From a virus (lineage: Duplodnaviria > Caudoviricetes), in IMG/VR virus record IMGVR_UViG_3300002220_000279, positions 2,162 to 66,161 of that record: a stretch of 64,000 nt of DNA; one strand, written 5' to 3'. The number at the start of each line of letters is the position of its first letter. The stretch's first letter is position 1. Below the pieces are notes generated by a model. It was not told the origin of the DNA, ran no database searches, and saw only the letters and a list, made by a program, of their open reading frames with translations. Of this stretch, positions 1,628 to 33,159 are shown piece after piece. The position numbers were made by a program, and so were the translations under genes.

Positions 1628-2539
1628 CTAATTTAAGAAAATTGATTCGCTTGCGTCGTGTTCTCTGTCTATAACGTTTTCTTCCGGAGTATCTTCTACG
1701 AATTTAGCATCGGTAATTTCTATTTCGTTTATCTCTGGTTTGTCAATGTAATGGTTGTGTTCATTTTCAGAGAACGCTAATTCAATAGATTTTTTGATGA
1801 TATCTTTAAATTCTTTTATATAGTCATCATCGTGAGTAAAATAATAATCTGGTAAAGATATTTCGCAGTCAAACCCACACAATAATCTTATATAGTTGGG
1901 AATACCATCATCATCACAATAGTCAATAGTAGTTAGTTCACTCACGGTAATATCTTTAATATACTCATAAATGTCGCAATTGGCTATTGAGTCGGATATT
2001 TCATCTTTACAGAAAGCCATAATCCTTTCGTCACTTTCACAGTTGCAATCGGATAGGTTTATGCAAGTATAGAATCCTAAAGTAATATTGAATCAAACTT
2101 TTTTTGACTTTTCTTTCGAAGACTCTTTTTCTCGTTGTTGTGGTTCTTCTTCGTAATCTTTGAAAATAGCAATATCAAGAATTTCTTCATCTTGAGCACC
2201 TATGCCGGTTTCTGATAAAAGTTTTCTTTTCATAGCCAATAAGTCAAAATTTCCAACAAAGTTAGATTCATATTCGTTTAGTATCTCGTCAATAGTTTGA
2301 CTTTTTTCGAATATGAGATATTTGGGGTCTATTTTAGCAACATTGTCACCAATCTTTTGCGCATTTATGTCACAGGATATATAGAAATTATCTCCCTTTT
2401 CTGCGATGATAAACGGCTTGTTGTCCACAGACTCCTTAATCACGTTTTCCACTATTTCTGTATACTGCGGTAAATACTTGAAATCTCTCTTTAGCTCTGC
2501 AAGATTTACCTTTACTTGGATACCATATTTTGCATTCAT
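1628..2539 (-). CDS. hypothetical protein, 303 aa if TGA at 2093-2095 is Trp (joins track ORFs 2093..2539 and 1628..2020)
   Basis: 24 open in-frame codons link the TGA to the ATG at 2020; an AAGGA before that ATG means two genes remains possible. Confidence 0.55.
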
Positions 2540-2557
2540 TTTTATATGTTCCTTAAG

Positions 2558-3166
2558 TTATATTTGCTGTGGTATAGTTTCATCCGCACTTGCAAAATCC
2601 TCTATAGCACTTTTATTTTTTTGTTTTTCTTTTCTTTGTCTTTCCGCTTCATCCATTAATAGAAGTATAAAAGCTTCCATCTCTTTCTTTAGTGCAGGGT
2701 TACTCATAATGCTGTCAATTAAATCAATTTTTGAAGAACCATCTGCATTATATGAGGACTCTACATCCATATTCTCAACATAGTCATTGATATAATCGTT
2801 AATTTCTAATATCATCGATTTGGTAAGCGGAATGTTATAATATCTGATTGTTTCCGCAATGGCATTTCTAATAATCTTGTTTTTATTCATTTTATCTTCC
2901 CTTTTTATTTTATCTATTGGAAATGGATTGTCATCAAACATCTGCGGTCCATAATGCTGTATAACAGATTCCCACCACACTCTCTTGTTTGACGAAAATT
3001 CAATATTGTATTTTTTTACTATGAGTTGTTTATCTACCCATTCCGGCATTGGCATAAATATATTGCCAACAGTATAAACCATTCCGCTATTGTCGTCAAT
3101 ACAATAAATAGTACCAGACTTATTATTAACTTTTACCCTATAATTCATTTTTAAAGTGTCATCCAT
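2558..3166 (-). CDS. hypothetical protein
   Basis: 202-aa ORF, AGGA upstream, TAA stop. Confidence 0.7.
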   Translation of the reverse strand: MDDTLKMNYRVKVNNKSGTIYCIDDNSGMVYTVGNIFMPMPEWVDKQLIVKKYNIEFSSNKRVWWESVIQHYGPQMFDDNPFPIDKIKREDKMNKNKIIRNAIAETIRYYNIPLTKSMILEINDYINDYVENMDVESSYNADGSSKIDLIDSIMSNPALKKEMEAFILLLMDEAERQRKEKQKNKSAIEDFASADETIPQQI

Positions 3167-3180
3167 TTAGATTATATCCT

Positions 3181-4323
3181 TTATGGGGTTTGCTTACCAA
3201 TTAGTTGCATTGTCAATTTCAGAAGCTGATTCATCGGCAGTTGTCATTGAGCAGGTGTTATATATGGCAATACCTGTTGTATTTGTTTATTTGTATATTT
3301 CATATTAGTAAGGGCAGAAGTAATTTGCTGTTGTTTAGCATTAACTGGTTGCTGTTGATTATTATTCTGTTGTTGTTTCCTATTAGCACCGCTTGGGTCT
3401 ATCCATTTTGCTAACATTTGAGAAATATCGTTAGCTGATAATTGTTCCCATTGAGCATCGTTAACCATGCCTATTTTATCAGAAATAGTATTGGCATTAT
3501 AACCTGCTTTCATTAGTGTTTGAACTACAGAAGTGTATTTAGCAATTAATTGTTTATCATTTGTCTTAGGTTGCTTGCTGTTACTCTGCGTTTTTTCTTT
3601 AGGCTTTAGTTTGTTTATAACAAGGATAAAATCTTTGTTGGCAATATCGTATTGTCCAGCGTTCCACCCTAACGTGATAAACTGTTGCCTTGCACTTTCT
3701 CTTTGTTGTTTGGCAGCTGCAATTTGCTTGTTTATAATAGGGTTGTTTGATATCTTTCCCACGAGGTTTTGAAAAATATTAGAGTATTGTGGCTCGAATG
3801 ATAAACCGATAACATATTTTGTTTTTAAAAGCTCTTTCATATTATAATTTTTAGAAGTTAAGTATTCATTTAAATCCTCATCCTCTAAAACATCGAATTT
3901 TCCAAAATTTGCTTTCCCATAATAAAGGCGCTTAATCTGTTTTTTCATCCTGTCATTTTCTGAATCCCAATTATCAGAGCCAAGCAAAACATCTTGTTCA
4001 GGTTGTGGGGGTTTCACCTCAGTTATAAGAGGTTTAACTATACGTTTTTTGACAGACGTAATAGATTCTAATAAAGTCAAACATTCTGACAAGATTTCGT
4101 TGTTTTTTACATCATCTTGGAAATATGGCAAAACATTATTGATTTCTTCTGTCAGGATTGTTTTTGTAGAATTAGACAATCCCTCGAATATGATGTTACC
4201 TGCATTCAAAGATAATCCATAATATGCGGAAATCTGTTTGGCAGAACAGAAAACTCTACCATTGAACATCAATTCTTTTTCATTGGTATTTTTTTCATTT
4301 ATAATCGTTCAGTGCTTTGTCAT
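3181..4323 (-). CDS. hypothetical Gln-rich protein, 380 aa, TGA=Trp at 4309-4311 and 3244-3246
   Basis: ATG at 4323 (MTKH[W]TIINE...); read-through ends at TAA 3181, 15 nt before the next ATG. Confidence 0.7.
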
Positions 4324-4356
4324 ATCTTTTTACCTTGTTATACTTGTATGTGCTAA

Positions 4357-4363
4357 TATATAG
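4357..4363 (-). promoter_or_regulatory. candidate late promoter CTATATA
   Basis: Motif lies between the capsid terminator and the next gene start; recurs upstream of other late units. Confidence 0.35.
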
Positions 4364-4411
4364 GGTCAATAGAAATATTTTATACTTTAATTTTTGTTTC
4401 TTTTTTGGTGC

Positions 4412-4443
4412 AAAAAAAAACCCTCCCCAATTGGAGAGGGTTT
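4412..4443 (-). terminator. Rho-independent terminator after major capsid
   Basis: Minus strand AAACCCTCTCC-AATT-GGGGAGGGTTT followed by a T-run. Confidence 0.85.
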
Positions 4444-4460
4444 GGTTAGTTATTTATAGA

Positions 4461-6149
4461 CTAATAAGTTGGGGTATTAGGCGGTTGTGCCGAATTAGTT
4501 ACAAACATTTCGTTATCTGGGTGATATTTCTTCAATACTCCAGCAACAGAACTGTCAATGTATTTCATACGAGACAAGTCGTCATACTTAAGAGCCACTT
4601 CAACACGACCATAGTAACCATCCCTAACCAGTTTTTTACCGTAACGGGACATGATACCACGTCTGTAGTTGTAGTTGTAAGGTTCGTAAATGACAGGAGT
4701 TAAGATACCCATAGTATACGGACAGAATACATATCCAGCATCCAGGAAGTTTTCACCTTTGTATCCTAACAGGATGTCATTTCTTCCCCACCAATCATAG
4801 TTATACGCTATGAACGGGTCAGGTGGAACGGAACCAGAAGCTGCCCAAATTGCAGCAGTGGTTGAGAATCCATGACCTGGGAAATAAGTGGTCATATTAG
4901 CGATTAGAGCTGCTTCAGCACCAGTGGTGGCAATGGTAGTGGCAGATGTAGCGAAAAGCAACCATTGAGCAGCAGGAGTGGTGTATAGAGCTTCATCAGC
5001 AGTAGCATTAATAGTATTAAAGGAAATGGCACCAGCAGATGTCACAACAGTGTCATATTTCTTTAAGGCTGGGACTGCACGCCACATACTGTCAACCATT
5101 GTATCAACATAGACTTTGAACTTTTTAGACAGAGTTCCGCCTTTGCTAACACCAACAGTTAATTCTAAACCATCGCTAACGTTATCTGCATCAAATCCGG
5201 TAATAGTTTCAAGGATAGAAGCCACGTCAGGGGAAACAACAATCCAGTTAGCACCGCTACGATGAGTAGAAGCTTTGATACGATTAGAAACTCTGTTAAT
5301 TTCATAAACTAACATCTTGTTCCAATCTAACTGGGTGCCGTAGAATGTCATATAGCCATAAGAACTAGCGTTGCTTTCAGCTAATGAACTCATATCTTCA
5401 TTCCAAGAACTGTAGTTGATTGCATTCTTTAGAGTGGTCTTACGTAAGTCAGCTAAGACTTCGTTGTTGATTTCTAAAGCAATGTATTCACCTAAGAATT
5501 GGGTTAGGGTTTTTTCAGCATCAATACCGTGGTAAGCGCTGACATCCTGTTCAATTTCCTGGGTCCATTCGGTCTGCAATTTACGAGTGTGGACATCAAC
5601 CTGGGTTTTGCTAATCTTAAATTTGATTTTAGGAATAGCGGTTGAGCTTTCGTAAGCTTCGGTATTATCAGGACCGGAATAGGTAGGGTCAAAGTTAATA
5701 GTGTTACCTAACACGTGCTGGGTATTAGAGCTTGTGCCATAAGGATAGGTAGCAGAAGTGGTTGAGGGACTCCAAGTCATAGATGAAGCATAACCACCAT
5801 TATAAAGGTTATAGCGGCTAGCACCATCATATACCATATCCAGATAGAAAATCTGAGTAGTAGGCAGGTCAACAGCTTGGGTACTGACCAGTTCAGTAAT
5901 AGTTAATTGAGCAAAAGTTCTGCGTAAAAGAGGGAAAGCCAATTTGTAGAAAGAAGCAATATCACCAGTGGTCATATTTTCTTTCAACATGGTCTTAATT
6001 TCTTTTTCAGTATTTTCGAGTAATTGAGCCATCACGGTCTGGTTATAAGAATTTAAATTCTTTAACAGTTTAGAGGGAGTCCATTTCTCGATTAGCTTTT
6101 GCTTGATTTGCGATTTGCTAGGAGCTACTGGGTCGCCAAAATTAATCAT
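4461..6149 (-). CDS. gp23: major capsid protein, T4 gp23-like, with a ~95-aa Ala/Thr-rich insertion
   Basis: RKLQTEWTQEIEQDVSAYHGIDAE, IALEINNEVL, GANWIVVSPDVASILE, ILLGYKG..AGYVFCPY, RGIMSRYG motifs; all Trp codons are TGG. Confidence 0.95.
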   Translation of the reverse strand: MINFGDPVAPSKSQIKQKLIEKWTPSKLLKNLNSYNQTVMAQLLENTEKEIKTMLKENMTTGDIASFYKLAFPLLRRTFAQLTITELVSTQAVDLPTTQIFYLDMVYDGASRYNLYNGGYASSMTWSPSTTSATYPYGTSSNTQHVLGNTINFDPTYSGPDNTEAYESSTAIPKIKFKISKTQVDVHTRKLQTEWTQEIEQDVSAYHGIDAEKTLTQFLGEYIALEINNEVLADLRKTTLKNAINYSSWNEDMSSLAESNASSYGYMTFYGTQLDWNKMLVYEINRVSNRIKASTHRSGANWIVVSPDVASILETITGFDADNVSDGLELTVGVSKGGTLSKKFKVYVDTMVDSMWRAVPALKKYDTVVTSAGAISFNTINATADEALYTTPAAQWLLFATSATTIATTGAEAALIANMTTYFPGHGFSTTAAIWAASGSVPPDPFIAYNYDWWGRNDILLGYKGENFLDAGYVFCPYTMGILTPVIYEPYNYNYRRGIMSRYGKKLVRDGYYGRVEVALKYDDLSRMKYIDSSVAGVLKKYHPDNEMFVTNSAQPPNTPTY

Positions 6150-6179
6150 CGTTTAGTTTCCTTTTATTTTAGTATTGAA

Positions 6180-7535
6180 TTACACGCCAGCCAAGTCAGC
6201 CATTCTGTCTCGTTCTGTTTGTTCTTTAATTATTTCGGGATTATTATTTCTGATAGTGTCAACAATCTCTTGTAATTTAGGAGAGATGTTGTGTTCTTTC
6301 AGTATATCTTTGACGTTACTAAATTTCTTTGACATGCTTTCTTTAAGCATTCCAATGGTATTTAATACAGTTTTGATTTCAACAGAATTGTTGCACTGTT
6401 GAATCAAATTCTTCATATTCATCTTATCCTGCGCGGCTATGTTGACAAGTTTGTCTATTTCAGACACTGCATTGACTTTTTCTGTGAATAGTTGAATATC
6501 TTGGAAAGTTTCTTTGAATTGCTTATTTTCCTTAATCAACGCAGATAATGCCCTGTCTGACTTTTCTTTTTCAGATTTTAATCTTTTAATTTCTGCCATT
6601 GCTTTGGAAACATTGTTTAAACCTGGTTCTTCCTGGTCAGTAGATTCCATATCTAATAATGGTTTTTCCTCACTGCCAAGTTCGGGTTCTGTTTCCACTT
6701 CGGGAGTTTCAGAATCAGCAGGAACCTCTACGGTATCCACATCATCATCATCCCATTCAAAATCATCAAATTCATCATCATCCCACGGCTCTGAATCGCT
6801 TTCAGGTGTATCTTCTCCAAGAGCTTCCTCAACCTTATCTTCGATTACATCCTCAATAACCTGACCGATTTTTTCAGCAGCTGTTTCTTCAACGCTATCT
6901 CCCAAATCGATATCAGTAATTTCGGCAGGGGTTTCTTCCGCAGGAGTTTCAGCAGGAATTTCTTCCGCAGGTAATTCATCTGCTGGGTTTTCGGAAGGAA
7001 TATCATCAGTTGGTTCTGCAGGAGTGTTGTCTGTGGTTTCTTCATCGAAGAAATCATCTTCTCCATCAGCGCCCTCAAAGATAATATCTTTCTTTTTAAA
7101 AGGGTCGTTAATGTTTTCAATTTTCATATCGGGTGTCTCCATACTATTGTCTATATTTTGATTATTTAAATCCGTTGGTGGAACGTTGTTATCGGCTATG
7201 TTCATTTTTTCACCAGCCGATTCATCTTTATTCTTGAGAGTTAGGGTAATTGATTTGTCCCCTTTATTCATTTTAGCCTCATAGATATCTCCGTCAATAT
7301 CAACTTCAACTAATGTATCTGGTAAAGTATCCCCACCAGTGTTCAGGTCTAAGTTACTATCAAGTGGCATATTGTCTAATTGGGGATTCTCATCATCCTG
7401 TGGCTGCTCGATAGCAGGAGTAGTTTCCTGTGGCTTCTTATCATCAAATAAATTTAGCTCATCGCTATTCATTTGCGTTTCTTTTAAGATAGCATCTTTT
7501 TTGAAATTGTCTTTTTTTTTCTTAAAATTCTTCAT
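6180..7535 (-). CDS. prohead scaffold/core protein, gp22-like
   Basis: Very acidic low-complexity middle, coiled-coil C-terminus ending RMADLAGV; sits immediately upstream of the capsid gene. Confidence 0.7.
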   Translation of the reverse strand: MKNFKKKKDNFKKDAILKETQMNSDELNLFDDKKPQETTPAIEQPQDDENPQLDNMPLDSNLDLNTGGDTLPDTLVEVDIDGDIYEAKMNKGDKSITLTLKNKDESAGEKMNIADNNVPPTDLNNQNIDNSMETPDMKIENINDPFKKKDIIFEGADGEDDFFDEETTDNTPAEPTDDIPSENPADELPAEEIPAETPAEETPAEITDIDLGDSVEETAAEKIGQVIEDVIEDKVEEALGEDTPESDSEPWDDDEFDDFEWDDDDVDTVEVPADSETPEVETEPELGSEEKPLLDMESTDQEEPGLNNVSKAMAEIKRLKSEKEKSDRALSALIKENKQFKETFQDIQLFTEKVNAVSEIDKLVNIAAQDKMNMKNLIQQCNNSVEIKTVLNTIGMLKESMSKKFSNVKDILKEHNISPKLQEIVDTIRNNNPEIIKEQTERDRMADLAGV

Positions 7536-7559
7536 ACTAAAATTCCCAAGTATTATTGT

Positions 7560-7566
7560 TATATAG
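7560..7566 (-). promoter_or_regulatory. candidate late promoter CTATATA
   Basis: In the 80-bp gap upstream of scaffold-capsid. Confidence 0.35.
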
Positions 7567-7615
7567 TATTAGTTCTCAAAATTATGTTTATTAATTTATC
7601 TGTTTCGGAAATATT

Positions 7616-8026
7616 TTATATATACTCCGAAAAATCCATTTGACTTATTTGTTCTATTGCGCGTTCATTTCCATATTTTTTGCTTATTTCGTGAATTTTT
7701 TCTGTAAGTTCACTATGATTTTTTATAGGCTCTGGAGTTTCCTCATTTGAAACATTTTCGTTAATTTTTGTAGGACCGCTTGCGTTGGGAGCAGCTCCCT
7801 GAATAGCTTTAATTCACATTTCCATCATATTCTGTGAGTCATTAGCCGTTTGTTGTGGTTGAGTAAAGGTAATCAAATCTAACATTGCATCTATTGTGTC
7901 TATAATGGAAGACTTATACTTGTCTTTACTGCCACTGTTACCAAGTTTTAATTCATCTCTGGCATCAAATAATTTGTGAATAGTATTAGCCAGTTTATTG
8001 TAAACTTCTTGTTTAGTCATTTTCAC
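7616..8026 (-). CDS. hypothetical protein, 136 aa, TGA=Trp at 7814-7816
   Basis: Frame stays open for 65 codons after the TGA to TAA at 7616, filling an otherwise empty gap. Confidence 0.7.
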
Positions 8027-8029
8027 ACC

Positions 8030-8923
8030 CTATCTTATGTTATTTTGTAAATTTGGTATACGTATTAAGACATACATCTTAAAAGGTTGATTATAATCTT
8101 CAATTGATTCTCTGTAATGAGTAATTATGTCATAAACATCAATATCGTTAGTATCAAACATCTTTGAACGCTTTATACTGTTAACTACTTCTTGTGATGA
8201 CTCTATTACTAAAGGCATCATATTCTTTGATATCTTCTTATCGGATTCATAGGATAAGGTTATGCAAATGAAATCTTCTTTGTTAATCGCATTTGATGTC
8301 CCCCCTTCAATTTCGATATCATCCCCTATCGCAACATTGGAATCCTCAAGAAATTTAACACCATATTGCGAGAAATACTTGTTATCAAATTCTGTTTGAA
8401 CGAAGTTTTTTATTTGGCTAATTAGGGATTCAAAATTGTATTGTTTGGCAGCATCAAGATTTTGTTGGACCAGTTCATCATCATCTATTAATTCTGACAG
8501 AATTCTTTTTTTACTTTCTTGTAGTTTATTGGATGGTTTATACAAGAATCAATATTCTGCATTGATATTAGAAATACGCGTTCAGTTCTTAAACATTCCC
8601 TGTTCAGATAACTTGTCCAAATCTTCTTTAGATTTGTATTTCTTTTTCTCAATATCTCGTATGGTTGTTATTTCCGTATCTTTTTCACCAGAAATGATTT
8701 GCTCTAATCTATTACAATTAATCATTAGATTAGAGGTATTGATGTGAAGCTTTAATACATTATCCCCAATATTGAATCCAAAATTGCTTATGATATCCTT
8801 GTCTAATAAACTTTTGGTTATCTTATCTACTTCTTCCATGACTTTATTTACATTCTCTCACAAAGGAAGATTCTCAAAATCGCCCATTTCGTAGTTGGCT
8901 TTGATTATATCAATATCTTTCAT
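8030..8923 (-). CDS. hypothetical protein, 297 aa, TGA=Trp at 8858, 8582, 8549
   Basis: AAGGA-preceded ATG at 8923; three TGAs join track ORFs 8582..8839 and 8030..8545 in one frame. Confidence 0.75.
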
Positions 8924-8942
8924 TTATCTATAGTTCCTTAAT

Positions 8943-9581
8943 TTAACGTAATACCACAGGTTTAAGGGTTTCTTGGATTCAGTGATTAAGTTGTTCATTG
9001 ACTGCTTTATTTCCATTATACCTGGTTAAGAATGCCTTATATGTGCTTGGCTCTGTAACTAAATCTCAAGTTATCACCTCTAAATTCTTTACTCGGTTTG
9101 CCCCATTTTCAAAAATTAGGTCACCCAAAGCACGAGATGACGTGCCAATGGTTCCAAATTCATCTATGATTGCTTGTGCTCTAGCGGCAAAATCGTGTTT
9201 TTCTCCCAATATTTTAATTAATCCATGCAGTTCACTATTTTCCCACCACAACTTAAGTATCCTGTGGCTAACTCTTTCCCACCTTACAAAGTCATCATCA
9301 GTGTGGTCAAGTTCTCCCGCCAGATACCCACCATCGTTAAACATTTCGTTTAAACGTTTGGATTCTCTGAACAGTTCATCATACGGGTATATGCGCTTGT
9401 TATGGTTTAGTGCATTGGCTCTCTGCATGGGACCAGAAAGAATGTATTCTCCATTGAATATGGCTTTATTATTTGCAGTTTCTTTTATAATCTTTTTGTG
9501 AATACTTTCGTTTAATTGTTCAGGACTTGAATATCTCTGAACAGCTCCGCATCCCCTCTCTACTAATAATATTTTAGCCAT
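8943..9581 (-). CDS. gp21: prohead core protease, T4 gp21-like, 212 aa, TGA=Trp at 9066 and 8979
   Basis: NHNKRIYP, GELDH, IGTSSRALG, then EVIT[TGA]DLVTEPST, matching the family (I/C)WD.V..PST motif. Confidence 0.92.
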
Positions 9582-9882
9582 CTAATTGATTTCCTTCTGT
9601 TATTTCTCCATACAGCCAATAATATTCAAGCACTTTTTCTGTTAGTAATGTTATATTGTGCAAATCTATCTTATTTTTCTTATACTCTTTTTGTATAAGG
9701 AATTCTGTTTTTGTTGCATGTTCTAATAACCTGTTATCTTTCATTTTTTTGTATAGTTCAGCATTAATAGCTTTGCAATGAGTTAAAAGGGATAAAAGAA
9801 ATTCTTTATAGTTTTGACCATCAACTTCCTTATATTCTTTTATTACTTCACTGCAAATGTTGTCAATGTCTAAATTAATCAT
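9574..9882 (-). CDS. hypothetical protein
   Basis: Probable start MINLDID at 9882 overlapping the portal stop; TAA overlaps the protease start. Confidence 0.6.
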   Translation of the reverse strand: MINLDIDNICSEVIKEYKEVDGQNYKEFLLSLLTHCKAINAELYKKMKDNRLLEHATKTEFLIQKEYKKNKIDLHNITLLTEKVLEYYWLYGEITEGNQLDG

Positions 9883-11926: not shown

Positions 11927-11945
11927 ATTTACATTCTCACTTTAG

Positions 11946-22383: not shown

Positions 22384-22385
22384 TT

Positions 22386-22925
22386 ATGGACAAATATGAG
22401 AAAAATATAATAAACTCTATTTGGTTTTTAAGCAAGTGCAGTAATATTGATGATTATCTTGAATCTAAAAAGAATCTTGCATATAATTTCACCGCATTAT
22501 GCCAAATTATTAAAGAAATGAGTGAAAATCAAGATAGTCCGGATGATATAGAATCACAGACAAAGAGTATTAGATTTATGTATACTTTATACGGAACAGA
22601 GATACTCAAAAACATATCTGTATGCATTCGGGTAATATGGGAAAACGATAGAGCTAAATTTAATAATTACTTGTCAAGCATTGGTTATTTTTCTAATAAC
22701 GTTTATAGAACAAAGAAAGAAAGTCCTGTTGGATTACATTTAGAACATTTGACTACTTGTAAAAAATGGGTAGACAATATGGATTGTGCGTTTCCTAGAG
22801 AATTTATGGCACAGTTCCACACTGACCTACCCGAAATAGTAGACAATTTGTCTTATAGTAAAGTTAATGTATGTGCAGTATTGAAAATATTCTTATTCTG
22901 CCTGTTTATCGGAGATTTCAAGTAG
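22386..22925 (+). CDS. hypothetical protein
   Basis: 179-aa ORF ending TAG; 3' end overlaps the convergent rmlD end. Confidence 0.6.
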   Translation: MDKYEKNIINSIWFLSKCSNIDDYLESKKNLAYNFTALCQIIKEMSENQDSPDDIESQTKSIRFMYTLYGTEILKNISVCIRVIWENDRAKFNNYLSSIGYFSNNVYRTKKESPVGLHLEHLTTCKKWVDNMDCAFPREFMAQFHTDLPEIVDNLSYSKVNVCAVLKIFLFCLFIGDFK

Positions 22926-23768: not shown

Positions 23769-23814
23769 TTTTACCGCCTATTACTTTATATAATAACTCA
23801 GATTTTATTTAGCA

Positions 23815-23828
23815 TAACTATATAGTTA
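23815..23828. promoter_or_regulatory. 14-bp palindrome TAACTATATAGTTA, candidate bidirectional late promoter
   Basis: Perfect palindrome between divergent rmlD (-) and the 23843 gene (+). Confidence 0.45.
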
Positions 23829-23842
23829 AAAGGTATATAAAA

Positions 23843-24217
23843 ATGATTAAGAACTTAGAAATTAAAATTCCGCTAACTATTAAAAAAATAAATTTTGGTT
23901 CTCAAGGCAATACATATCTTTTCAGATTCTTTGACACGTTTCCTTTCAGACAGATTAATTTAGTGGAAGAGGGATTTGATAATGTTATTTTCACAGCGGT
24001 AAATTCAGACGATGAAAGCCAACTACTATTTAAATCAACCGTAGAGTTAAGTGGCTCTTTGTCATCAAGTATGACGGCAGACATACCATTGGTCCTAGAG
24101 AGGGAACACTTAAAGCGTGGAACTGCCGACCTTTCTATAGAAATTAATTCTTTGTCAGGTTCTTCCATTACATGTAAATACAAGCAATATTTCCCAAGAC
24201 TTATCAATATAGTATAA
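23843..24217 (+). CDS. hypothetical protein
   Basis: 124-aa ORF, AAAGG upstream. Confidence 0.6.
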   Translation: MIKNLEIKIPLTIKKINFGSQGNTYLFRFFDTFPFRQINLVEEGFDNVIFTAVNSDDESQLLFKSTVELSGSLSSSMTADIPLVLEREHLKRGTADLSIEINSLSGSSITCKYKQYFPRLINIV

Positions 24218-24238
24218 ATTTTTCATAAAGGGTTCACA

Positions 24239-26395
24239 ATGTTTAGTAAAAACTTTTTAAAAGAAGATTGACTTACAGACAAGCATAAAAGAGAATATTT
24301 AATCGGAGTTAGTTCCGAAATTATCAAGATGGTTAACAAAAAACAATCATATGGTGAGATAATTGAATGACCGTGGGCGAATAAACAGAAATACCCTGCT
24401 ATACTTTATACCCCAGACCCCCTAACAAAACACAGCACATACCTTTTAATATTAATTGTTCCTAAAAGCGCCAGTATAGATTCTGCAGGTGGATTTAGCG
24501 TAAAGGGAAATTACATTATTGTATATTTGTATGTTGACGATATAATTTACAATAATTTCAAAAAAAATAACAAAGGTGTTAGTTCAGACGGATGGAGCAA
24601 TTTAATAAGTCGCTCTATAAAAGATGACAACAAAGAGTATTTCGACAGTGCATTATACCATGAATTAGAACATTGGTATGATTATCATATAAATAAGTTT
24701 AATTTTAATGCATATAAATACGGCATGATTGATGATAAGGTTACTCCCCAACAATTAAGTGCTTATCACATACAGCCATTAGAATATAATGCCTATTACG
24801 GCAACTTTATTCGAGATTTAGAATCGCTAATTAGAGAACTTAAAGAAGAAAGTGGAAGGGAAAGTGAGTTTGTAAAAAAGATGGATTCAACGCCATTTAA
24901 CGATTTTGTAAATATTGTCGATGCTATGACAAAGGGTGACAACGCTCCCCTATTTTATCATTCAGAATTCTGGAATACCATTTTACACAACGCATATTGA
25001 AAAAAGAAAACCCTTAAACGATTATATGGGTGGTATAAAAACGTTTTCCCACAGATTATAGCAGAGAGACGAAACATTACTTACACTCCATACGAAATAA
25101 AAACACAAGTTCATTATTATATGTCAATAAAAAAACAAAGTTATAAAAGTGATGCAACCAAATACGGATATCCTGATAAATTTTTACTTGCTATCGATAA
25201 AGATTTTAATGATTTTGACGAGAATAGAAAGAATTTTATCATCAACAATAAATTGGCAGAATTAGTTCCTAATAAAAATTATGACCCAAATGGGGAGAAT
25301 TTTGATGAGTGGTGGAACGTTAACTATAAGAATGTATGGCTCTATACTAAAAAGGGTGAAGAATTTGCCGATATGGATGAGGAGATATTGCCTAGTTATG
25401 CGTTGTTATCAGAATCTCCCATACCATCTTATCACGGAGGACCAAATGCTTTTGACAAATTTGATGCGTATTATATTAATACTGGTGAACAGGCTCAAGC
25501 GTTTGGATGAGGGTTATATTTTACCAGTAATCCTAAAATAGCGGAAGATTATGCTATTAAACTTGGTAGTTTTAGAAAATTTAAGATGACCCTTAATGGA
25601 GTAGATATATTAGACAACCCCAATTGAGTTAATACTATAAGTAATTATTACATATCTCATTATGGTCAACCAGATTTAGATGAACAAGATATATACGCTG
25701 CAACACATGTTTATATGAATTACTTTATAGAGTTTATTTATCGGGCATCTACTAAAACTGTTAACCAGGCTTTAAAGGACACGGATGACATAATTAGTAA
25801 TAGTTTTGAGCTTGCTGAATCCATTGAGGGAGATTACCATTCTGCTCGCGAATATGTTAGAGGTCTAGAAAACATTATTCGTAATAAAGAAATTAAAATT
25901 TTTAGACAGAAACCAAACATCAGAAATGTTTATCACGTAACTCTATGACCAGATAAAGAGCCTAATTTGTTATCTTGGACAGAAAAACCTACTGAACAAC
26001 AATTTGTTACTATTTTTAACGAGTGGAAAAAAAGTGGGTTACAGTATCCGCTTAAAACGGTAGAAGAGTGAGAAAAGGATGGAGTGCCGTTAAAAGACTA
26101 TAACGATGGAATGAATGATAATGATTGGGTAATAAATATTCCACACGGATATAATAGTATGCAACCCTCTCTGCCATCTGGCTTATTGGTGTTTAATAAT
26201 GGAGAGAATCTTTATAAAATAATAGAATCAGCCCTTAATTCGCCAATGGAAGCGAGTCATTTGTTATTAAGAGCTGGAATAGATGGAATAGTATATCCAT
26301 CGGGTATAGTAAGTGGTTATCGGGGAGAAATGGGTCAAAATTTTGTAGTATTTGACGACAATCAAATAAGAATAGAGCGAAACAAACAATTCTAA
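24239..26395 (+). CDS. multidomain zincin-like metallopeptidase + ADP-ribosyltransferase-like (polyvalent-protein type), 718 aa, seven TGA=Trp
   Basis: TGA at 24269, 24368, 24998, 25508, 25625, 25946, 26069 all in one frame; ALYHELEH; SYHGG..FDKF...GEQAQAFG[TGA]GLYFTSN; LRAGIDGIVY...NFVVFDDNQI. Confidence 0.85.
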
Positions 26396-26453
26396 TAACA
26401 TAAATTGATATGGAGTTATTTTATATAAAAAGAATAAGCATAGCGAGGTTTAA

Positions 26454-28451
26454 ATGCAAGAAACACTACTAATTACTGGGGGAGCTGGGTTCATAGGACA
26501 TCATTTCGTAGAACACTGGCTAAGGAATACTGATTGAAATATTGTTGTATTTGATAAACTGTCTTATGCATCAATGGGATTAAGCAGGTTAAGAGATATC
26601 AACGCAATTAATAATCCGAGAGTGAAAATTTTTACTAACGATATCAGAATGGATATTTCTGATGGGATTGTTAAAGAAATTGCCAACGAAATAACTTATA
26701 TCGCACATCTAGCAGCTGAAACACACGTGGATAAAAGCATACTGGACCCTAAATTGTTTGTTGAAACTAATGTATTGGGAACGTTTAACGTTTTAGAATT
26801 TGCTAAAAAATGTCCAAACCTTAAAGCATTTAATTATTTCAGCACAGATGAAGTGTATGGTCCTGCCCCAGACGGAATACTTTTCAAAGAATCTGATGGA
26901 TTAAATTGCACAAACCCTTATTCCGCTAGCAAGGCGGGAGGGCAGGAATTAGCCAGCTCTTTTGCCAATACCTACAATATGCCTTTGTTTATCAGCAACT
27001 GTCATTCTGAAGATACGCTCTGTTGGTCAAAAAATGGATTTGTGTCTGTAGATAATTTAAAAGTTGGAGATGAGGTATACACCCTTAATGACAAACAAGA
27101 GATAGAGTTAAATAAAATTGATAATATTATTCAATATGATTATATTGGAGATATGATAAACCTTGAGGGAAATTCATATTCTCAATTAGTGACTCCGGAG
27201 CATAGAGTGTTGACAAAAAAAAGATATGGGGAAAAACAATATACAGCTAAATACGCCATAGACTTGTTAAATATTGGGAGAGCAGAACGGCATTATGTTC
27301 CTACAAGCGGGAAATGGTCGCGTGGCAAGAGGGATAGTGTAAATATAAAAAAGAGTATTCGTTTTTGTAAATTTCACTACAACTCTAAAGATATACCAGA
27401 CACACTAAACACTTATGATTTATTTGAATTTTTGGGATGGTTTATATCGGAAGGCGGGTCAAATGACCGTGGAGGATTTAAAATTTCGCAAAGAAATGCT
27501 AGAAATAAAAAGAATATAATAAAGTGTATTGAAAGATTAGGATTTTCTTATGGATTAAATTCTGATGACATTCAGATGAATTCGGTTAAGTTTTGTAAAT
27601 TTTTAAAACAATTCGGCAGGAATTCTAGCGAAAAACAAATACCAAGATGGGTATTAGAATACGATGTTAGATATTTGGAAAGGTTGTTTCATTCGTTGAT
27701 GCTTGGAGATGGAACTCGCGTTAGAAGAGGTTGGAGGTATTACTCTAAATCTAAAGAATTGTGTAACCAGGTTGCAGAATTGTCAATTAAATTGGGGTAT
27801 TCTGCAAATGTCAAATCGAGAAAATGTTTAAATCCGTCAAAGACGTGTGAGAGTATTCAATATTATACTAATATTTGCAAATCTAAGAGTAGTTTGGAAA
27901 AAAGTAATATATCGATTCAAAAGTATAGAGGTAAAGTATGGTGTCTGAAAGTTAAAAATGGTAATTTTTTCGTACAACGTAATGGAAAAATATGTTGCTC
28001 CGGGAACTGCATGAATGTTTTCGGAGAAAGACAACATCCCGAAAAATTTGTTATAAAGTGTATAGCGAAAATTCTGCGTGGTGAAACAATTTATATACAC
28101 GCTAATAATGATTATCAGATAGGAACTCGCAATTATATACACGCAAGAAACGTAGCGAAAGCCATAGAGTTTTTGTTTACAAATTTTAACGTTAACGAAA
28201 GGTATAACATTAATGGAGAAAAGGAAGTTAACAATTTAGATATGCTTAAGTTTATTGCTGGCATTATTGGTAAAGAACCAAAATATGAAATAGTAAATTT
28301 TGTAGAAGAAAGACCTGGACACGATTTCAGGTATGCATTGGATGGCAGTAAAATGGAAAATATGGGGTGGTCCATTCCGATGCAATTTGAACAATCACTA
28401 ATGAAAACTGTGCAGTGGACACTAGCGCACCAAGAATGACTACAGGAGTAG
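26454..28451 (+). CDS. rmlB: dTDP-glucose 4,6-dehydratase with intein; TGA=Trp at 26535 and 28437
   Basis: ITGGAGFIG, TD[TGA]NIVVFDKL, HLAAETHVD, STDEVYG, PYSASK, MNVFGERQHPEKF, RPGHDFRYALD, WTLAHQE[TGA]LQE*. Confidence 0.9.
27000..28007 (+). mobile_element. intein (336 aa) with LAGLIDADG homing endonuclease
   Basis: Starts CHSEDT; VTPEHRVL block B; FLGWFISEG and LMLGDG motifs; ends FFVQRNGKICCSGN with +1 Cys. Confidence 0.9.
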
Positions 28452-28455: not shown

Positions 28456-28959
28456 ATGATACTATATCGTACAAAAGAAAGACAGCAAACGCACAAAATT
28501 ATTGAAAAGATATTAAAGAATCCTAAATGTGATTATTATTTGTTTCCTAGACAATATGGAATAACCACAGCCATGATTAATTTAGTTAATCAGGGTAACG
28601 GTAAGTATGGATATTTAGGAAGACAGGTAAATTGTAATGGACTAAACCACAAGTTATTTTATTCAAGTTTCCAACCCTTAATTAGGGACCACATGGTGGG
28701 CGGAGAATCTTTTGATATATTGTTTATCGACAATCGTTATTGGATTTGGGACAAACCTTTAACAGATTTTGAGATTCAAAAATTGAGTATAGTGGCAAAA
28801 AAAATAGTGTTTGTAGCTACTATAGAATTCGATGGAATTAGCAATATAAATATTCCAAAAAACAAGTCTTTACAAATAATTCAATTCTCTGCAGACGATG
28901 ATAATGACTATATGGAGTTATTATCTGAGTGGGAAAAACAACAAGGAGAACAAGATTAA
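28456..28959 (+). CDS. hypothetical protein with degenerate terminase-like P-loop
   Basis: LFPRQYGITT (cf. RQxGKT) and ILFIDN. Confidence 0.4.
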   Translation: MILYRTKERQQTHKIIEKILKNPKCDYYLFPRQYGITTAMINLVNQGNGKYGYLGRQVNCNGLNHKLFYSSFQPLIRDHMVGGESFDILFIDNRYWIWDKPLTDFEIQKLSIVAKKIVFVATIEFDGISNINIPKNKSLQIIQFSADDDNDYMELLSEWEKQQGEQD

Positions 28960-30314
28960 TGAAATTCTCAACCGATTTTTGGCAGGAAGTCCTATATTAC
29001 AAGGATAAATGTTTAACAAACAACATCCCTATTACCGTTGATGGTATTATGGATGAGTTTGAGTTATCTAACCGAATAGCATCCGGTGTATATCAAATGA
29101 TTGATAATGTAGAATTTATTCGCGAAGCACTTGTCGGTCCAGAGCCACAAAGTTACAGAAGTATGGATTCAGATACATTTGACTTTGATGATGGGGATTC
29201 TTTATTGGATGAGTCGTCTGATGAAGAACTAATTGCCGCTAACGTAAAGTATAAAAAGCAAACTCAAAGATTTGCAGATGTAAACCGTATTGAAAGAAAG
29301 TCATTCCGGGAATACGCAAGGGTAGAGAACGCATTAGTAGAATTAGATAGAGAATTATTGGAAGTTTTATCTAAGCGTCAAGTATTTCCCGATTTCCAAA
29401 TTGTCTCTCATCCACACAATGATAAAATGGGGGCTGTTGGAATTGTTCACTTGACTGACTTACATTTCAATGAGTTAGTAGATATAGCAGTTAACAAATA
29501 TGATTTTAAAGTGGCATCTAAAAGATTGCGCAAATTCATTGGAGCATCCATTAAATATTTCCAAACAGAAAATATTGAAAATGTATTTGTAGCAATGACG
29601 GGTGACTTACTGAACAATGACAATCTTCTGGACAAAATCCTTAATCAGGCATCCAATAGGGCAAAAGCCATTTTCCTGGCTCATAAATTGTTATCTCAAG
29701 CGTTTGTTGATTTAATGCAACACTTTCATCTGACCGTTGCAGGGGTAACAGGTAACGAAACAAGAATTAAGGGTGATGTTACGTTTGATACTAATATCTC
29801 ATCCGATAACTTTGATTTTATGCTTTACAATATGTTGTATGCTACATTCAGTAATTGTGAACGAATCTCGTTTGTGGGCGGACACGATACCGAAATGGTT
29901 GTAGAAGTGGCAGGTCAAAACGTTCTACTCATACATGGTCATCAAAGAAAGATTATGTCTAGTGTGACATCGGGAGTTCAGCAAATTATAGGCAAATATG
30001 CGCAGCGTGGAATTATAATTCATTTCGTTATATTCGGTCACTTGCACGAAGCTTATATTGCTGATATATTTGCCAGAAGTTCATCTATGGTAGGAGCAAA
30101 TGCATATAGCGAAGACGGTTTGCAGTTGGCAAGTAGAGCTAGCCAAAATCTTCACATATTCTACAAAGATGGTAGCAGAAATACTATTAGGGTGGATTTG
30201 CAGAACGTAAATGGCATAGATGGATATGAAATCGATGAAGATTTAGAATCATATAACGCTAAATCAATTGACAAGTTACACGAAAACACAGTAATATTCC
30301 AAGTTATAATATAA
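28959..30314 (+). CDS. calcineurin-like metallophosphoesterase
   Basis: HLTDLHF, MTGDLL, GNE, IHGH, FGHLH; TAATG-coupled start. Confidence 0.85.
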   Translation: MKFSTDFWQEVLYYKDKCLTNNIPITVDGIMDEFELSNRIASGVYQMIDNVEFIREALVGPEPQSYRSMDSDTFDFDDGDSLLDESSDEELIAANVKYKKQTQRFADVNRIERKSFREYARVENALVELDRELLEVLSKRQVFPDFQIVSHPHNDKMGAVGIVHLTDLHFNELVDIAVNKYDFKVASKRLRKFIGASIKYFQTENIENVFVAMTGDLLNNDNLLDKILNQASNRAKAIFLAHKLLSQAFVDLMQHFHLTVAGVTGNETRIKGDVTFDTNISSDNFDFMLYNMLYATFSNCERISFVGGHDTEMVVEVAGQNVLLIHGHQRKIMSSVTSGVQQIIGKYAQRGIIIHFVIFGHLHEAYIADIFARSSSMVGANAYSEDGLQLASRASQNLHIFYKDGSRNTIRVDLQNVNGIDGYEIDEDLESYNAKSIDKLHENTVIFQVII

Positions 30315-30323
30315 ATATAATTC

Positions 30324-30351
30324 TTGCTTTTTAAGATTTGTTGATTATATT
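30324..30351 (+). promoter_or_regulatory. early-type promoter TTGCTT-N16-TATATT upstream of the sigma gene
   Basis: Same motif and spacing as the repeated promoters at 34.7-57.9 kb. Confidence 0.65.
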
Positions 30352-30378
30352 AAGAGTATATTGAAAAAGGAATAGAGG

Positions 30379-31041
30379 ATGTTTATGACTAGAGCAGAAA
30401 ATCTTAATGAATTAATAAGGCAGTATAAGAAAAACCCTAGCGACAAAAACTTTGAAACAATTTATAAAGCAATGTTGCCGGCTATTCAAGATGTATTGTG
30501 GAAAAAATTGGGACTAACTAAAAAACAATATGTTAGGTATCGAGATGATATCCACCAACAGGCAGTTGTGGCTCTCCATAAAGCACTGAAAAAGGTAGAG
30601 CCCGGTCCTGGGTCAACTACTTTTGTATATTTGCGTGAATATATTAGGGGAACGGTCCACAATTTTATGCCGAGACTTACGGATTCAACTCCACCGAATC
30701 GCGATATGCTGTCTCATAAAACGAATAGTTCGTATTATTCTCACCATTTTGGTGTAGATAAGCCAGTTAATTTAGACAATGACATGGATACATCTAATAC
30801 AAGGGATGTTTGCACTAACAGTCCTAACCACACCGTACAGTGGTTTGATACGTATATGCAAAAGAACCTGTCATCAAAACATTATAAGATATTCAGAAAC
30901 TATTATGTGGACAGAATGAGTATGCAGGAAATAGCGAATAAGCATGGTGTAACGAGACAGGCAATATCCCTTTGTATGAAACATCACATAGAGCCAACCA
31001 TTAACAATGCTAAACAACTAACTCATATTTGGAGTATGTAA
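30379..31041 (+). CDS. phage RNA polymerase sigma factor (sigma70 family)
   Basis: Region-2-like QQAVVALHKALKK...FVYLREYIRG and region-4 HTH MSMQEIANKHGVTRQAIS. Confidence 0.8.
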   Translation: MFMTRAENLNELIRQYKKNPSDKNFETIYKAMLPAIQDVLWKKLGLTKKQYVRYRDDIHQQAVVALHKALKKVEPGPGSTTFVYLREYIRGTVHNFMPRLTDSTPPNRDMLSHKTNSSYYSHHFGVDKPVNLDNDMDTSNTRDVCTNSPNHTVQWFDTYMQKNLSSKHYKIFRNYYVDRMSMQEIANKHGVTRQAISLCMKHHIEPTINNAKQLTHIWSM

Positions 31042-31628
31042 TGCTAGAAAAAGATAAATATAGTTTAAGTAAACTTAACCATGATATCACATTAATCGGT
31101 TTTTCAGGTAAAAACGGTAGTGGAAAAACTACAGTGGCAACAGAATTATCTAAAATATTTACTGAGAATATGAGGATAATGTCCGAAAAAATTTCATTTG
31201 CAAGTGCTGTAAAGGACTGTGCTAGGCGGTTTTTCTTTTGGAACGGAGAGAAAGACATTGAGGGGAGACATTTGTTGCAGTGGCTCGGAACTGATGTAGG
31301 TAGAGTGTATGATGAAAATATATGGGTAAAACATCTCGTGTTAACAATTGAAAAAATATCCTTATATTACTATGATGTCTCTAAATTAATAATTATTGTT
31401 GATGATGTTAGGTTCGATAACGAAGCGAAATGGATAAGAAATTGTGGAGGACACGTATTCCAGATTAAGCGCCATTGTGAGACACAATTAGAAAACCATG
31501 CATCTGAACAGGGAATAAGTCCTACACTTATTACTGAGATTCTAGATATGGATAATATATTCAGCGTTCCCTTTGATGCTGCCCACTACATAATAACTGC
31601 ATATTTTAAAGAATTATACGATAAATAA
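31041..31628 (+). CDS. deoxynucleoside monophosphate kinase
   Basis: GFSGKNGSGKTT, SFASAVKD, RHLLQWLGTDVGR, IVDDVRFDNEA. Confidence 0.88.
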   Translation: MLEKDKYSLSKLNHDITLIGFSGKNGSGKTTVATELSKIFTENMRIMSEKISFASAVKDCARRFFFWNGEKDIEGRHLLQWLGTDVGRVYDENIWVKHLVLTIEKISLYYYDVSKLIIIVDDVRFDNEAKWIRNCGGHVFQIKRHCETQLENHASEQGISPTLITEILDMDNIFSVPFDAAHYIITAYFKELYDK

Positions 31629-31646
31629 TAAAAGTAAGGATTACAA

Positions 31647-32879
31647 ATGATTAATAAGTACGAGACAAAGCATGAACAACGCATACTACATTTAGTTGAC
31701 AACTATGCCAACGAATCTGAACGCATAGAACTAAAATCTTTTTTTTCTAATATGATAGATAATATCGATTTGTCAGAAGAAGATAGACCTATAATCGCAT
31801 TTTCTGTTCCGGCTGAAACAGGAACATCTCATTGGAGATTACTTGAACCACTTTTTTCCCTATGGAAAGAATACAGGGAACAATTCTTGTTTCTTTATTT
31901 TGAGGGAGAATCAATGAACTATAACTTGTTCAATTATGTAGATATTTGGGTACAGCACAGAGCAGGAGCATGGCACGCCAATGCTGTAGAATATAGAAAT
32001 CAATATCCCAAATCTGAAAGTGTGCCTGTAATAATACACGATGTTGATGATAATGAATTCGACATTCCTCCCGAACACCCTCTACACAAAATTTGGATTG
32101 AACACAAGAAAGACCAAATGAGCAAAACACAGATAACTAATAGTGATTATGTTACTACAACTACAAAGGCTTTAAAGAGAGCATTTGATAAATTCAACCT
32201 AAATCAAAAAATTAAAATCATTCCTAACGCTATTAACTTTGATATGAAAAATTGGAATTTAGAATACACTAGACCTGAAAAATACAAAGATAAAACTGTA
32301 TTAGGATGGAGCGGATTGTCCCACCCGGAAGATTTGGTATATTTGTCAAAAATATTCAAAGAAATCAACAAGAAATACGATGAAAAAGTATACTTTGTTG
32401 TAGCGGGTGTGAACAAATGGAAAGAATCGGACAAAATAAAGTTCGAGGAATCATATGAGGGTTTAATACATACAAGTTTCAAACCTCTAATTGATGCAGG
32501 TGTTATAGACATATTAGAGCCAAAACCTTTAGCAGAATATATGAAGTATTATCAGTTATTTGATTTGAATACAGCATACGTAGTTAATCGTAAGTGGAAC
32601 ACGTATAAAAGCAACATTAAAGCGATGGAATCGGGAGCTTTGGGTAAAGTTACAGTTATGAGTAACGTTGGACCATATAACGATTTTTCTAACGAGTTAC
32701 CCATTTCAATAGCCGACAAAGTTAATTTGATTTGTTCAAAAAATATAATGTCAGAGTGGATAAAGAATCTTTCGTACTGGATTGATAATCCTGACCGCAG
32801 AGAGATAGTAGGCAATCAGATTAGGGATTATGTTAGAGAAAAATACCACATTAAAAACGCAAACGAATTAACACATTAA
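31647..32879 (+). CDS. GT-B glycosyltransferase
   Basis: GTSHWRL..P, IHDVDD, DYVTTTT, IPNAI, LGWSG, KSNIKAMESGA...VMSNVGPY. Confidence 0.8.
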   Translation: MINKYETKHEQRILHLVDNYANESERIELKSFFSNMIDNIDLSEEDRPIIAFSVPAETGTSHWRLLEPLFSLWKEYREQFLFLYFEGESMNYNLFNYVDIWVQHRAGAWHANAVEYRNQYPKSESVPVIIHDVDDNEFDIPPEHPLHKIWIEHKKDQMSKTQITNSDYVTTTTKALKRAFDKFNLNQKIKIIPNAINFDMKNWNLEYTRPEKYKDKTVLGWSGLSHPEDLVYLSKIFKEINKKYDEKVYFVVAGVNKWKESDKIKFEESYEGLIHTSFKPLIDAGVIDILEPKPLAEYMKYYQLFDLNTAYVVNRKWNTYKSNIKAMESGALGKVTVMSNVGPYNDFSNELPISIADKVNLICSKNIMSEWIKNLSYWIDNPDRREIVGNQIRDYVREKYHIKNANELTH

Positions 32880-32896
32880 AAACGCAAACGAATTAA
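32847..32896 (+). repeat. 25-bp tandem duplication at the glycosyltransferase 3' end
   Basis: cacattaaaaacgcaaacgaattaa x2. Confidence 0.9.
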
Positions 32897-32932
32897 GATA
32901 TAATTTATACAGAGAAATCCTTACTAAATAAT

Positions 32933-32940
32933 CTATATAG
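32933..32940 (+). promoter_or_regulatory. candidate late promoter CTATATAG upstream of rpsU
   Basis: Same motif as at 15317 and 23818. Confidence 0.35.
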
Positions 32941-32967
32941 TTGCAAGATTTTCAATATGGAGAAAAA

Positions 32968-33159
32968 ATGACAATATTAAGTAAGGGTGAGCAAGAGAGC
33001 TTCTCTACACTACTAAACAGATTTAAGAAGAAAATGCGGAAAAGCGGTATACTCAGAGATTATTCAGAATCTCTTGAATACGAAAAACCATCTGTGCAAA
33101 AGAAAAAGCGATATAAAAGATGAAGAAATAAAATGAAATACGAAAACGCAAAGGACTAA
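32968..33159 (+). CDS. rpsU: ribosomal protein bS21, 63 aa with TGA=Trp at 33121 (51 aa if TGA stops)
   Basis: ESFSTLLNRFKKKMRKSGILRDY..EYEKPSV.KK is the bS21 signature; GGAG RBS. Confidence 0.88.

Follow-up and report, generated by a model that had tools for sequence, protein, structure and literature searches.

Recoding of TGA from stop to tryptophan (Trp), biased towards late genes, has been published for large phages whose hosts use the standard code (Borges et al., bioRxiv 10.1101/2021.08.26.457843). In the 'Jade' and 'Agate' gut phages of that study TGA means Trp, in-frame TGAs are found in scattered structural and late modules while replication genes keep the standard code, few genes stop at TGA, and near relatives swap TGA and TGG. 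The Jade clade, which was defined on a large-terminase tree, carries a code-change operon of tRNA, tryptophanyl-tRNA synthetase (TrpRS) and release factor 1 (RF1) genes upstream of its lysis cassette, and a Sup-TCA tRNA was detected in 35% of code-4 phages (bioRxiv 10.1101/2021.08.26.457843) or, in another survey, in 15% (PMC11210395). Late-gene stop reassignment, of TAG to Gln or TGA to Trp, is also found in crAss-like phages, whose hosts are thought to use the standard code (PMC11210395), and proteomic proof is reported for code 15 (PMC9523058). Phages of Mycoplasma and Spiroplasma likewise read TGA as Trp, there because the host uses it (PMC11210395), and a 2026 jumbo-phage survey reported TGA recoding and labelled the residue glycine (PMC13037316). 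Here we describe TGA codons that are read as Trp in 14 genes of a phage from an oil-sands tailings pond, on a stretch of 64,000 nucleotides (nt) that corresponds to bases 2162–66161 of the 66,161-bp virus record IMGVR_UViG_3300002220_000279 (GC 34%) and is called the window below.

The phage resembles Jade and Agate in the meaning of TGA, in the restriction of in-frame TGAs to scattered structural and late modules with replication genes in the standard code, in the rarity of TGA as a stop, in the TGA/TGG swaps between near relatives and, for Jade, in a genome of ~200 kb. It differs from them in its habitat, a tailings pond instead of the animal gut, in the absence of a tRNA/TrpRS/RF1 code-change module from the 65% of its genome that was searched, and in a set of recoded genes that includes dTDP-rhamnose enzymes, the ribosomal protein bS21 and giant ART polyvalent proteins. 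Its virion type is unrelated to that of the crAss-like phages, as its head genes are of the T4-like Gp23/gp20/gp21 kind. With phage T4 (Straboviridae) it shares the Gp23 capsid, gp20 portal (Portal_T4), gp21 protease (Peptidase_S77), gp13, sheath and UvsX genes, whereas its replication set, PolA together with a DnaE-type DNA polymerase III (Pol III) alpha subunit, is not T4-like. The closest portals of GenBank phages are only ~30% identical. A preliminary description of the window had called it a 'T4-like jumbo phage', which suits the head and sheath genes and the size of 212,068 bp but not the replication genes.

The genome was recognized through its major capsid protein, which recurs letter for letter on a 212,068-bp ENA metagenome contig (ERZ27315067, k141_1767033), in SRR636569 as assembled by Logan and on a JGI contig from sample 3300000558. 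SRR636569 and 3300000558 both derive from the 2011 sampling of the Syncrude Mildred Lake Settling Basin, an oil-sands tailings pond (PMC7674155, PMC5029510). The phage genome is ~212 kb and encodes a T4-like head, and the window is about one third of it. Two relatives served for comparison: relative A, a 179.5-kb JGI contig (loci L004 and L020), with 93% capsid identity and 76% amino acid (aa) identity overall across 9687 aligned codons, and a second relative, a 19-kb JGI/IMG-VR contig (L005, which equals L006), with 88% capsid identity.

That TGA is a sense codon in these genes follows from several properties of the sequence. Under translation table 11 the left 34 kb of the window is crowded with abutting same-frame fragments, which table 4 fuses into full-length genes. 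With starts and strands curated against the relatives, positions 1–34604 contain 30 in-frame TGAs in 14 genes, each of which ends at TAA or TAG. The preliminary description had also found 30 TGAs and fused genes ending in TAA or TAG, but had placed the codons in 15 genes and set the number broken by standard annotation at about 15, where the count is 14; one TGA (12345–12347, codon 7 of the gene at 11946–12365) is probably 5′ of the true start, leaving 29–30. The coding fraction, estimated by greedy tiling of open reading frames (ORFs), rises on passing from table 11 to table 4 from 0.843 to 0.936 in 1–16 kb and from 0.920 to 0.983 in 16–34 kb, and shows no gain in 34–64 kb (0.918 to 0.900); it falls if TAG or TAA is recoded instead of TGA. 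Orthologues in the relatives run uninterrupted over the window TGAs at 64–90% identity, and the IMG gene calls for the second relative already show an unbroken portal of 681 aa that contains TGAs. The TGAs are not sequencing errors, because window positions 1–16149 are 100% identical to the ENA contig and positions 1–14696 are 100% identical to the Logan contig, and because most of them are kept in the two diverged relatives. When each of the 14 genes was split into its longest TGA-free piece and the remainder, which table 11 discards, the synonymous share among codons differing from relative A was 0.60 in both classes (875/1461 and 559/939), and therefore protein-level purifying selection is equal on either side of the TGAs.

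Some candidate TGAs were rejected. Two that belong to a long ORF at 15729–16733 precede the true start, homology beginning at the ATG at 15864. Three code-4 ORFs rich in TGA and without TGG, at 7584–8003 (plus strand; 6 TGA, 0 TGG), 34633–34944 (plus strand) and 23818–24339 (minus strand), are artefacts; at the first and third of these positions a conserved gene occupies the opposite strand.

The partner codons in the relatives indicate which residue is inserted. The 29 window TGAs that align with relative A face TGA 17 times, TGG nine times and GAG, TTC and AAA once each; the 100 aligned window TGGs face 83 TGG, 13 TGA and four other codons; and TGAs of relative A in turn face 13 TGG, 17 TGA and one TCT in the window. 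Because the interchange runs both ways, TGA behaves like TGG. In the 44 alignments of window TGAs to the two relatives combined, 27 partners are TGA and 10 are TGG, and neither Gly nor Cys, the two residues that the preliminary description had singled out as telling against Trp, occurs even once.

More distant homologues were consulted with every TGA masked as X, to keep the query from biasing the alignment. At codon 149 (position 23322) of the dTDP-4-dehydrorhamnose reductase RmlD (291 aa, 22893–23768, minus strand; PDB matches down to E = 4.7e-41), Trp is present in 4/4 PDB structures shown. Codon 662 (28437) of the dTDP-glucose 4,6-dehydratase RmlB (26454–28451, plus strand) corresponds to Trp in 8du1 and 1g1a. 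At codon 424 (25508) of a 718-aa protein with an ART-PolyVal-like domain (24239–26395, plus strand), 143 homologues of <60% identity have W in 83 cases, H in 41 and Y in 14. These three columns had been quoted as Trp columns beforehand, together with two others that proved variable: RmlB codon 28 (26535) is Trp only in 2hun, the other two PDB homologues shown having Ile and Asp, and codon 172 (9066) of the prohead protease is Val in T4 gp21 (5jbl). The latter residue, like the Asn of T4 gp20 at portal codon 393, is unremarkable and no argument against Trp. No conserved column in the RmlD, RmlB and ART homologue alignments has a Gly majority. On these comparative grounds, that is, interchange with TGG, Trp at conserved columns of distant proteins and equal purifying selection, TGA means Trp in this phage, as the preliminary description had proposed.

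The use of TGA is partitioned between gene classes. The head/neck module (35–15268, minus strand) has 18 TGA and 43 TGG and the RmlD-to-RmlB block (22893–28451) has 11 and 23. In the replication block (15864–22925, plus strand; SSB, UvsX, exonuclease, DnaB helicase and others) the figures are 0 TGA and 23 TGG, and its orthologues in relative A are TGA-free at aligned positions. Genes at 28456–34604 contain 29 TGG and a lone TGA, that of bS21. The 48 early ORFs (plus strand, 34.9–64 kb) contain 109 TGG and about 0 TGA, in that two 'internal' TGAs belong to over-extended ORFs, at their codons 5 and 8, and three more are ≤12 codons from the end. By Fisher's exact test, TGA use in the late-type genes differs from that in replication genes at p = 9e-4 and from that in early genes at p = 2.7e-9; these counts, and the promoter types described below, bear out the earlier suggestion that recoding is confined to late-type genes. 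Even there TGG makes up ~70% of Trp codons and TGA about a third. The major capsid gene (Gp23 family; 4461–6149, minus strand; phrog_138, E = 3.9e-62), taken as a comparator, has 11 TGG and is devoid of TGA in all three genomes. Together, the capsid (11 Trp) and sheath (11 Trp) genes use TGA at 0/22 positions, for which the chance is ~4e-4 at a TGA share of 30%. The avoidance of TGA by these two genes and its use by low-copy proteins suggest a cost of suppression for abundant proteins, which is testable.

Promoter motifs divide the genes along similar lines. The sigma70-like motif TTGCTT-N15-17-TATAYT precedes 14 genes at a distance of 25–35 nt, and 14/14 of them are TGA-free; within the window it occurs at 30324, 34672, 35586, 37837, 40801, 41203, 44660, 45342 and 57879. 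A second motif, CTATATA(A/G), at window positions including 7559, 13816, 15317, 23818 and 32933, is found 18–50 nt upstream of eight genes, namely RmlD, a gene of 124 aa at the head of the 718-aa/RmlB unit, bS21, the genes at 14594–15268, 13099–13788 and 6180–7535, and two outside the window. Its palindromic form, CTATATAG, a candidate late promoter core, occupies 23818–23825, where RmlD and the 124-aa/718-aa/RmlB unit diverge; RmlD is 50 nt away and the 124-aa gene 18 nt. This position is kept in relative A, which has CTATATA(A/G) at the corresponding sites. TGA-bearing genes account for 6/8 of those behind CTATATA(A/G) and 0/14 of those behind the early promoter (p = 4e-4). To judge from this common motif, the TGA-bearing subset appears to be the late class; for the sugar and ART genes, it is solely the shared promoter motif that suggests lateness.

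The code of the host can be approached through the genes that do stop at TGA. Within 129 kb, 48 table-11 ORFs end in TGA, and most of them fall inside long code-4 ORFs. Those that do not are short early ORFs in which the TGA overlaps the next start (ATGA at 36968–36971, GTGA at 51006–51009) or has a TAA or TAG 1–10 codons beyond it; early ends at TGA are also seen at 59004–59006 and 39559–39561. At all four places an in-frame TAA or TAG is reached 1–10 codons further on, as if these ORFs were built to tolerate both codes. From these stops, from the lack of in-frame TGA in early genes and from the predominance of TGG throughout, we infer that the host reads TGA as stop and uses the standard code. 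An SD-like (Shine-Dalgarno) 4-mer precedes 59% of starts, compared to 11% of random positions, and we take so frequent a use of this signal to speak against a Bacteroidota host, a further distinction from the crAss-like phages.

The reading that we favour, with a probability of roughly 70%, is that the late-class genes of this phage use TGA as Trp in a standard-code host, in which a UGA-reading activity appears during infection. Early genes would be expressed from the sigma70-like promoters and, like the replication genes, would be translatable without any in-frame TGA, a few of them apparently stopping at this codon. The TGA-bearing subset, comprising head/neck genes, RmlD, RmlB, the ART-domain proteins and bS21, would be expressed from behind CTATATA(A/G), and its messages would stay incomplete in a standard-code cell until a Trp-charged UGA-reading activity, most likely a phage suppressor tRNA(UCA) encoded in the remaining third of the genome, arises in infection. 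Late proteins would thus wait for this activity, and the avoidance of TGA by the most abundant virion proteins would fit a competition between suppression and release factor 2 (RF2).

Several observations weigh against this reading. The decoder search extended over positions 48540–187247 of the 212-kb contig (138.7 kb, 65% of the genome), and in that region no tRNA and no group I intron was detected (ARAGORN, including intron and relaxed modes; Rfam), nor was there a Pfam match to RF1 or to a tRNA synthetase, TrpRS included, in the precomputed Pfam lists of the loci's genes. A tRNA-Trp(UCA), RF1 or TrpRS, for which the preliminary description had suggested a search, was consequently not found in the searched 65%. 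The CTATATA(A/G) motif is short, was picked after viewing the upstream regions of TGA-bearing genes and is modestly enriched (20 in the window, against 9.1 ± 3.4 expected, with 1/100 shuffles reaching 20), and is used here as supporting evidence only; two genes directly behind it have no TGA. The T4 late promoter TATAAATA is not enriched in the window (18, against 14.1 ± 3.5 expected), and lysis genes were not identified in the DNA read. T4 itself combines that promoter with the standard code.

In the same searches, no tRNA was found in the 66,161-bp virus record. Relaxed ARAGORN matches (ps85; introns at ps90) include no UCA anticodon and were treated as noise, their positions not being checked, and sub-threshold Rfam matches in the window are likewise noise. 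The terminase, baseplate and fibre genes were not seen in the DNA read and are expected in the remaining 73 kb, which should hence contain a large late block.

An unlikely alternative dispenses with the suppressor tRNA: the host tRNA-Trp(CCA) would read UGA as a near-cognate codon while a phage factor weakens RF2 or alters the ribosome or the tRNA, the candidate factors being the phage bS21, an ART enzyme or an RNA-modifying enzyme. The lack of a detected tRNA in 138.7 kb agrees with this idea, as does the finding of Sup-TCA tRNAs in only 15–35% of published code-4 phages, and the phage encodes bS21, three ART-domain proteins, RtcB and an RNA ligase. In addition, the base after a sense TGA is C in 19/85 cases, compared to 52/545 after TGG (merged 129 kb), and UGA-C is the leakiest and weakest stop context in bacteria; however, this bias could reflect avoidance of the GC dinucleotide alone. 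It must also be considered that the tRNA search covered 65% of the genome, and that genes with 7, 13 and 22 TGAs would require near-complete read-through at every site. The specific proposal that a phage without a UGA-reading tRNA of its own switches a standard-code cell by way of RF2, the host tRNA-Trp or the ribosome (e.g. through bS21 or an ADP-ribosyltransferase) has a slightly slimmer prospect still. If true, it would constitute a tRNA-independent genetic-code switch and could explain the undetected suppressors of most published code-4 phages.

It is improbable that the phage simply mirrors a native code-4 host, in the manner of the Mycoplasma and Spiroplasma phages, with no switch and with an uneven distribution of TGA caused by mutational or expression bias. 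Such a host would account for the lack of suppressor tRNA, RF1 and TrpRS in 65% of the genome and would suit an AT-rich genome of 34% GC, and most GenBank code-4 phages do infect code-4 hosts (Cook et al., PMC11210395). Yet TGA accounts for 0/23 Trp codons in the replication genes and, credibly, for none of the 109 in early genes, against ~30% in late genes, and several early ORFs stop at TGA, with ATGA/GTGA overlaps or a backup stop within 10 codons. Furthermore, TGG is dominant throughout this genome, while in AT-rich code-4 organisms it is not the dominant Trp codon. A 212-kb T4-like myovirus with SD sequences at 59% of its genes, from an anaerobic tailings pond, is also unlike the known Mollicutes phages, in which TGA is Trp in all gene classes and never a stop; in the present phage no in-frame TGA occurs in early or replication genes, and in some early genes the codon appears to act as the stop. 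Finally, that the TGAs are real stops (owing to assembly errors, pseudogenes or split genes), glycine codons (code 25) or selenocysteine codons is scarcely credible, since, apart from the status of table 11 as the default code, the sole point in favour, and although code-25 bacteria could occur in such habitats, independent assemblies are identical, the TGAs are kept in diverged relatives under equal purifying selection on both sides, 0/44 partner codons are GGN and no conserved column has a Gly majority, as code 25 of Absconditabacteria/Gracilibacteria phages would demand, no partner codon encodes Cys and no RNA family, SECIS included, reached the Rfam threshold.

Because the late-gene TGA-to-Trp habit has already been published for gut phages, the phage is a solid further example and introduces no new principle. 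It extends this recoding from the gut to anaerobic industrial sediment and to a lineage with a T4-type head. Particular to it are the non-gut habitat, the recoded dTDP-rhamnose, bS21 and giant ART genes, the lack of a tRNA in two thirds of the genome and the coincidence of promoter class with codon use, which makes for a clean system. For annotation, the consequence is that table 11 breaks or truncates 14 genes of the window, the portal, protease, RmlB, RmlD and bS21 being mis-called without code 4.

The recoded head/neck genes are all on the minus strand. The first gene of this late block (14594–15268, 224 aa) has CTATATAG 49 nt upstream, conserved in the relative, and a TGA at 14855–14857 (codon 138; TGG in relative A, TGA in the second relative). 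It is followed by a 246-aa late gene (13848–14588) with TGAs at 14466–14468, 14322–14324 and 14043–14045, all three of which both relatives keep as TGA, at protein identities of 89% and 74%, and by a 229-aa late gene (13099–13788) preceded by CTATATAA at 28 nt, of which table 11 leaves 126 aa; its TGA (13708–13710, codon 27) corresponds to AAA in the unbroken 224-aa orthologue of relative A. A TGA-free gene of 260 aa (12314–13096, minus strand) lies amid the portal-side genes; neither relative has a counterpart, Pfam and PHROG give no match, and the gene may be a recent insertion into the late block. Just upstream of the portal gene, a head-module gene of ~125 aa (11946–12365; orthologues of 125 aa) has a TGA at 12156–12158 (codon 70), which is TGG in relative A and TGA in the second relative. 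The portal itself (gp20 family, 683 aa, 9875–11926) matches phrog_213 (E = 5.4e-48) over residues 111–529, that is, across the TGA at codon 393 (10748–10750), which is TGA in both relatives; its other TGA, at codon 645 (9992–9994), is TGG in relative A and TGA in the second relative.

In the prohead protease (gp21 family, 212 aa, 8943–9581; phrog_207, E = 1.4e-29), codons 172 (9066–9068) and 201 (8979–8981) are TGG and TGA in relative A and TCT and ATA in the second relative, and the alignment to T4 gp21 spans codon 172. A 297-aa gene in the scaffold position between protease and capsid (8030–8923; 79% identical to relative A over its full length) has TGA for all three of its Trp codons, 8858–8860, 8582–8584 and 8549–8551, with partners in relative A and the second relative of TGG and TGA, TGA and TGA, and TGA and ATA, respectively. 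At the TGA of a 136-aa head-module gene (7616–8026; 7814–7816, codon 71), the unbroken orthologues of 135 and 130 aa have TTC (Phe) and TAT (Tyr), both aromatic. The 380-aa head-module gene directly downstream of the capsid gene (3181–4323) has TGAs at codon 5 (4309–4311), which is TGA in both relatives, and at codon 360 (3244–3246), which is TGA in relative A and TGG in the second relative. A virion-module gene of 303 aa with no assigned role (1628–2539) is split by table 11 into 130 and 148 aa; relative A has an unbroken orthologue of the same 303 aa, with 73% identity along its whole length and GAG at the TGA site (2093–2095, codon 149).

Outside the head/neck module, both TGAs of RmlD (23694–23696, codon 25, a variable column, and 23322–23324, codon 149) are kept in relative A. 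The 718-aa protein matches PF18760 at E = 1.1e-6 and 29.9 bits, slightly below the curated cut-off of 31.2 bits, and has 7 TGA (24269, 24368, 24998, 25508, 25625, 25946 and 26069) and 11 TGG, the TGA partners in relative A being 4 TGG and 3 TGA. RmlB matches PDB entries in two stretches, residues 4–184 and 518–664, which are separated by a LAGLIDADG intein, and both of its TGAs are kept in relative A, whose RmlB has 329 aa and no intein. The intein (27003–28004, plus strand, 334 aa) contains 6 TGG and 0 TGA, the exteins 2 TGA and 3 TGG. The phage bS21 gene (32968–33159, plus strand), with CTATATAG at 32933–32940, has its TGA at 33121 (codon 52/63); in the orthologue of relative A, called Ribosomal_S21, this TGA is conserved and the 11-codon tail aligns. 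Two lengths of the bS21 product are possible, depending on how the TGA is read.

To the left of the window (window –9289 to –412), code 4 fuses ~20 table-11 fragments into two giant ORFs on the plus strand, L022:9197–14371 (1724 aa, 22 TGA, 21 TGG) and L001:16562–20281 (1239 aa, 13 TGA, 21 TGG), the most heavily recoded genes seen. Both contain an ART-PolyVal domain (profile positions 1–139/140, E = 4.4e-43 and 6.4e-15) plus DUF5661 or LPD23, and by this domain content they look like polyvalent proteins. On the other side, a second sugar epimerase/dehydratase gene lies beside RmlC (L023 5241–6200, window ~77482–78441, minus strand), which is 88 + 192 aa under table 11 and 319 aa with two TGAs under code 4; because of these two TGAs, recoding reaches sugar-pathway genes outside the window.

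Close relatives are scarce in the collections searched: none was found when IMG/VR was scanned with the portal or JGI metagenomes with the helicase, a capsid-alignment search matched solely the 19-kb record already known, and the same alignment found no match among GTDB genome contigs. In the early region, at window 59384–59390 and within 53591–64000, the window record departs from the 212-kb ENA contig by an indel of ~51 nt, two 1-base indels and 3 substitutions, differences that reflect strain variation or else an assembly error. Other parts of the 212-kb genome encode RtcB and an RNA ligase, the 1091-aa DnaE-type Pol III alpha, beside PolA, an intein-containing class II ribonucleotide reductase of 1577 aa, ThyX and an Apyc1-like anti-Pycsar protein, and carry four N6/N4 methyltransferase genes inside 7 kb, with a fifth close by (coordinates, listed jointly for this gene set: L021 12488–13768, L023 8912–9997, L024 4679–7954, L026 3103–7836 and L027 2414–9601).

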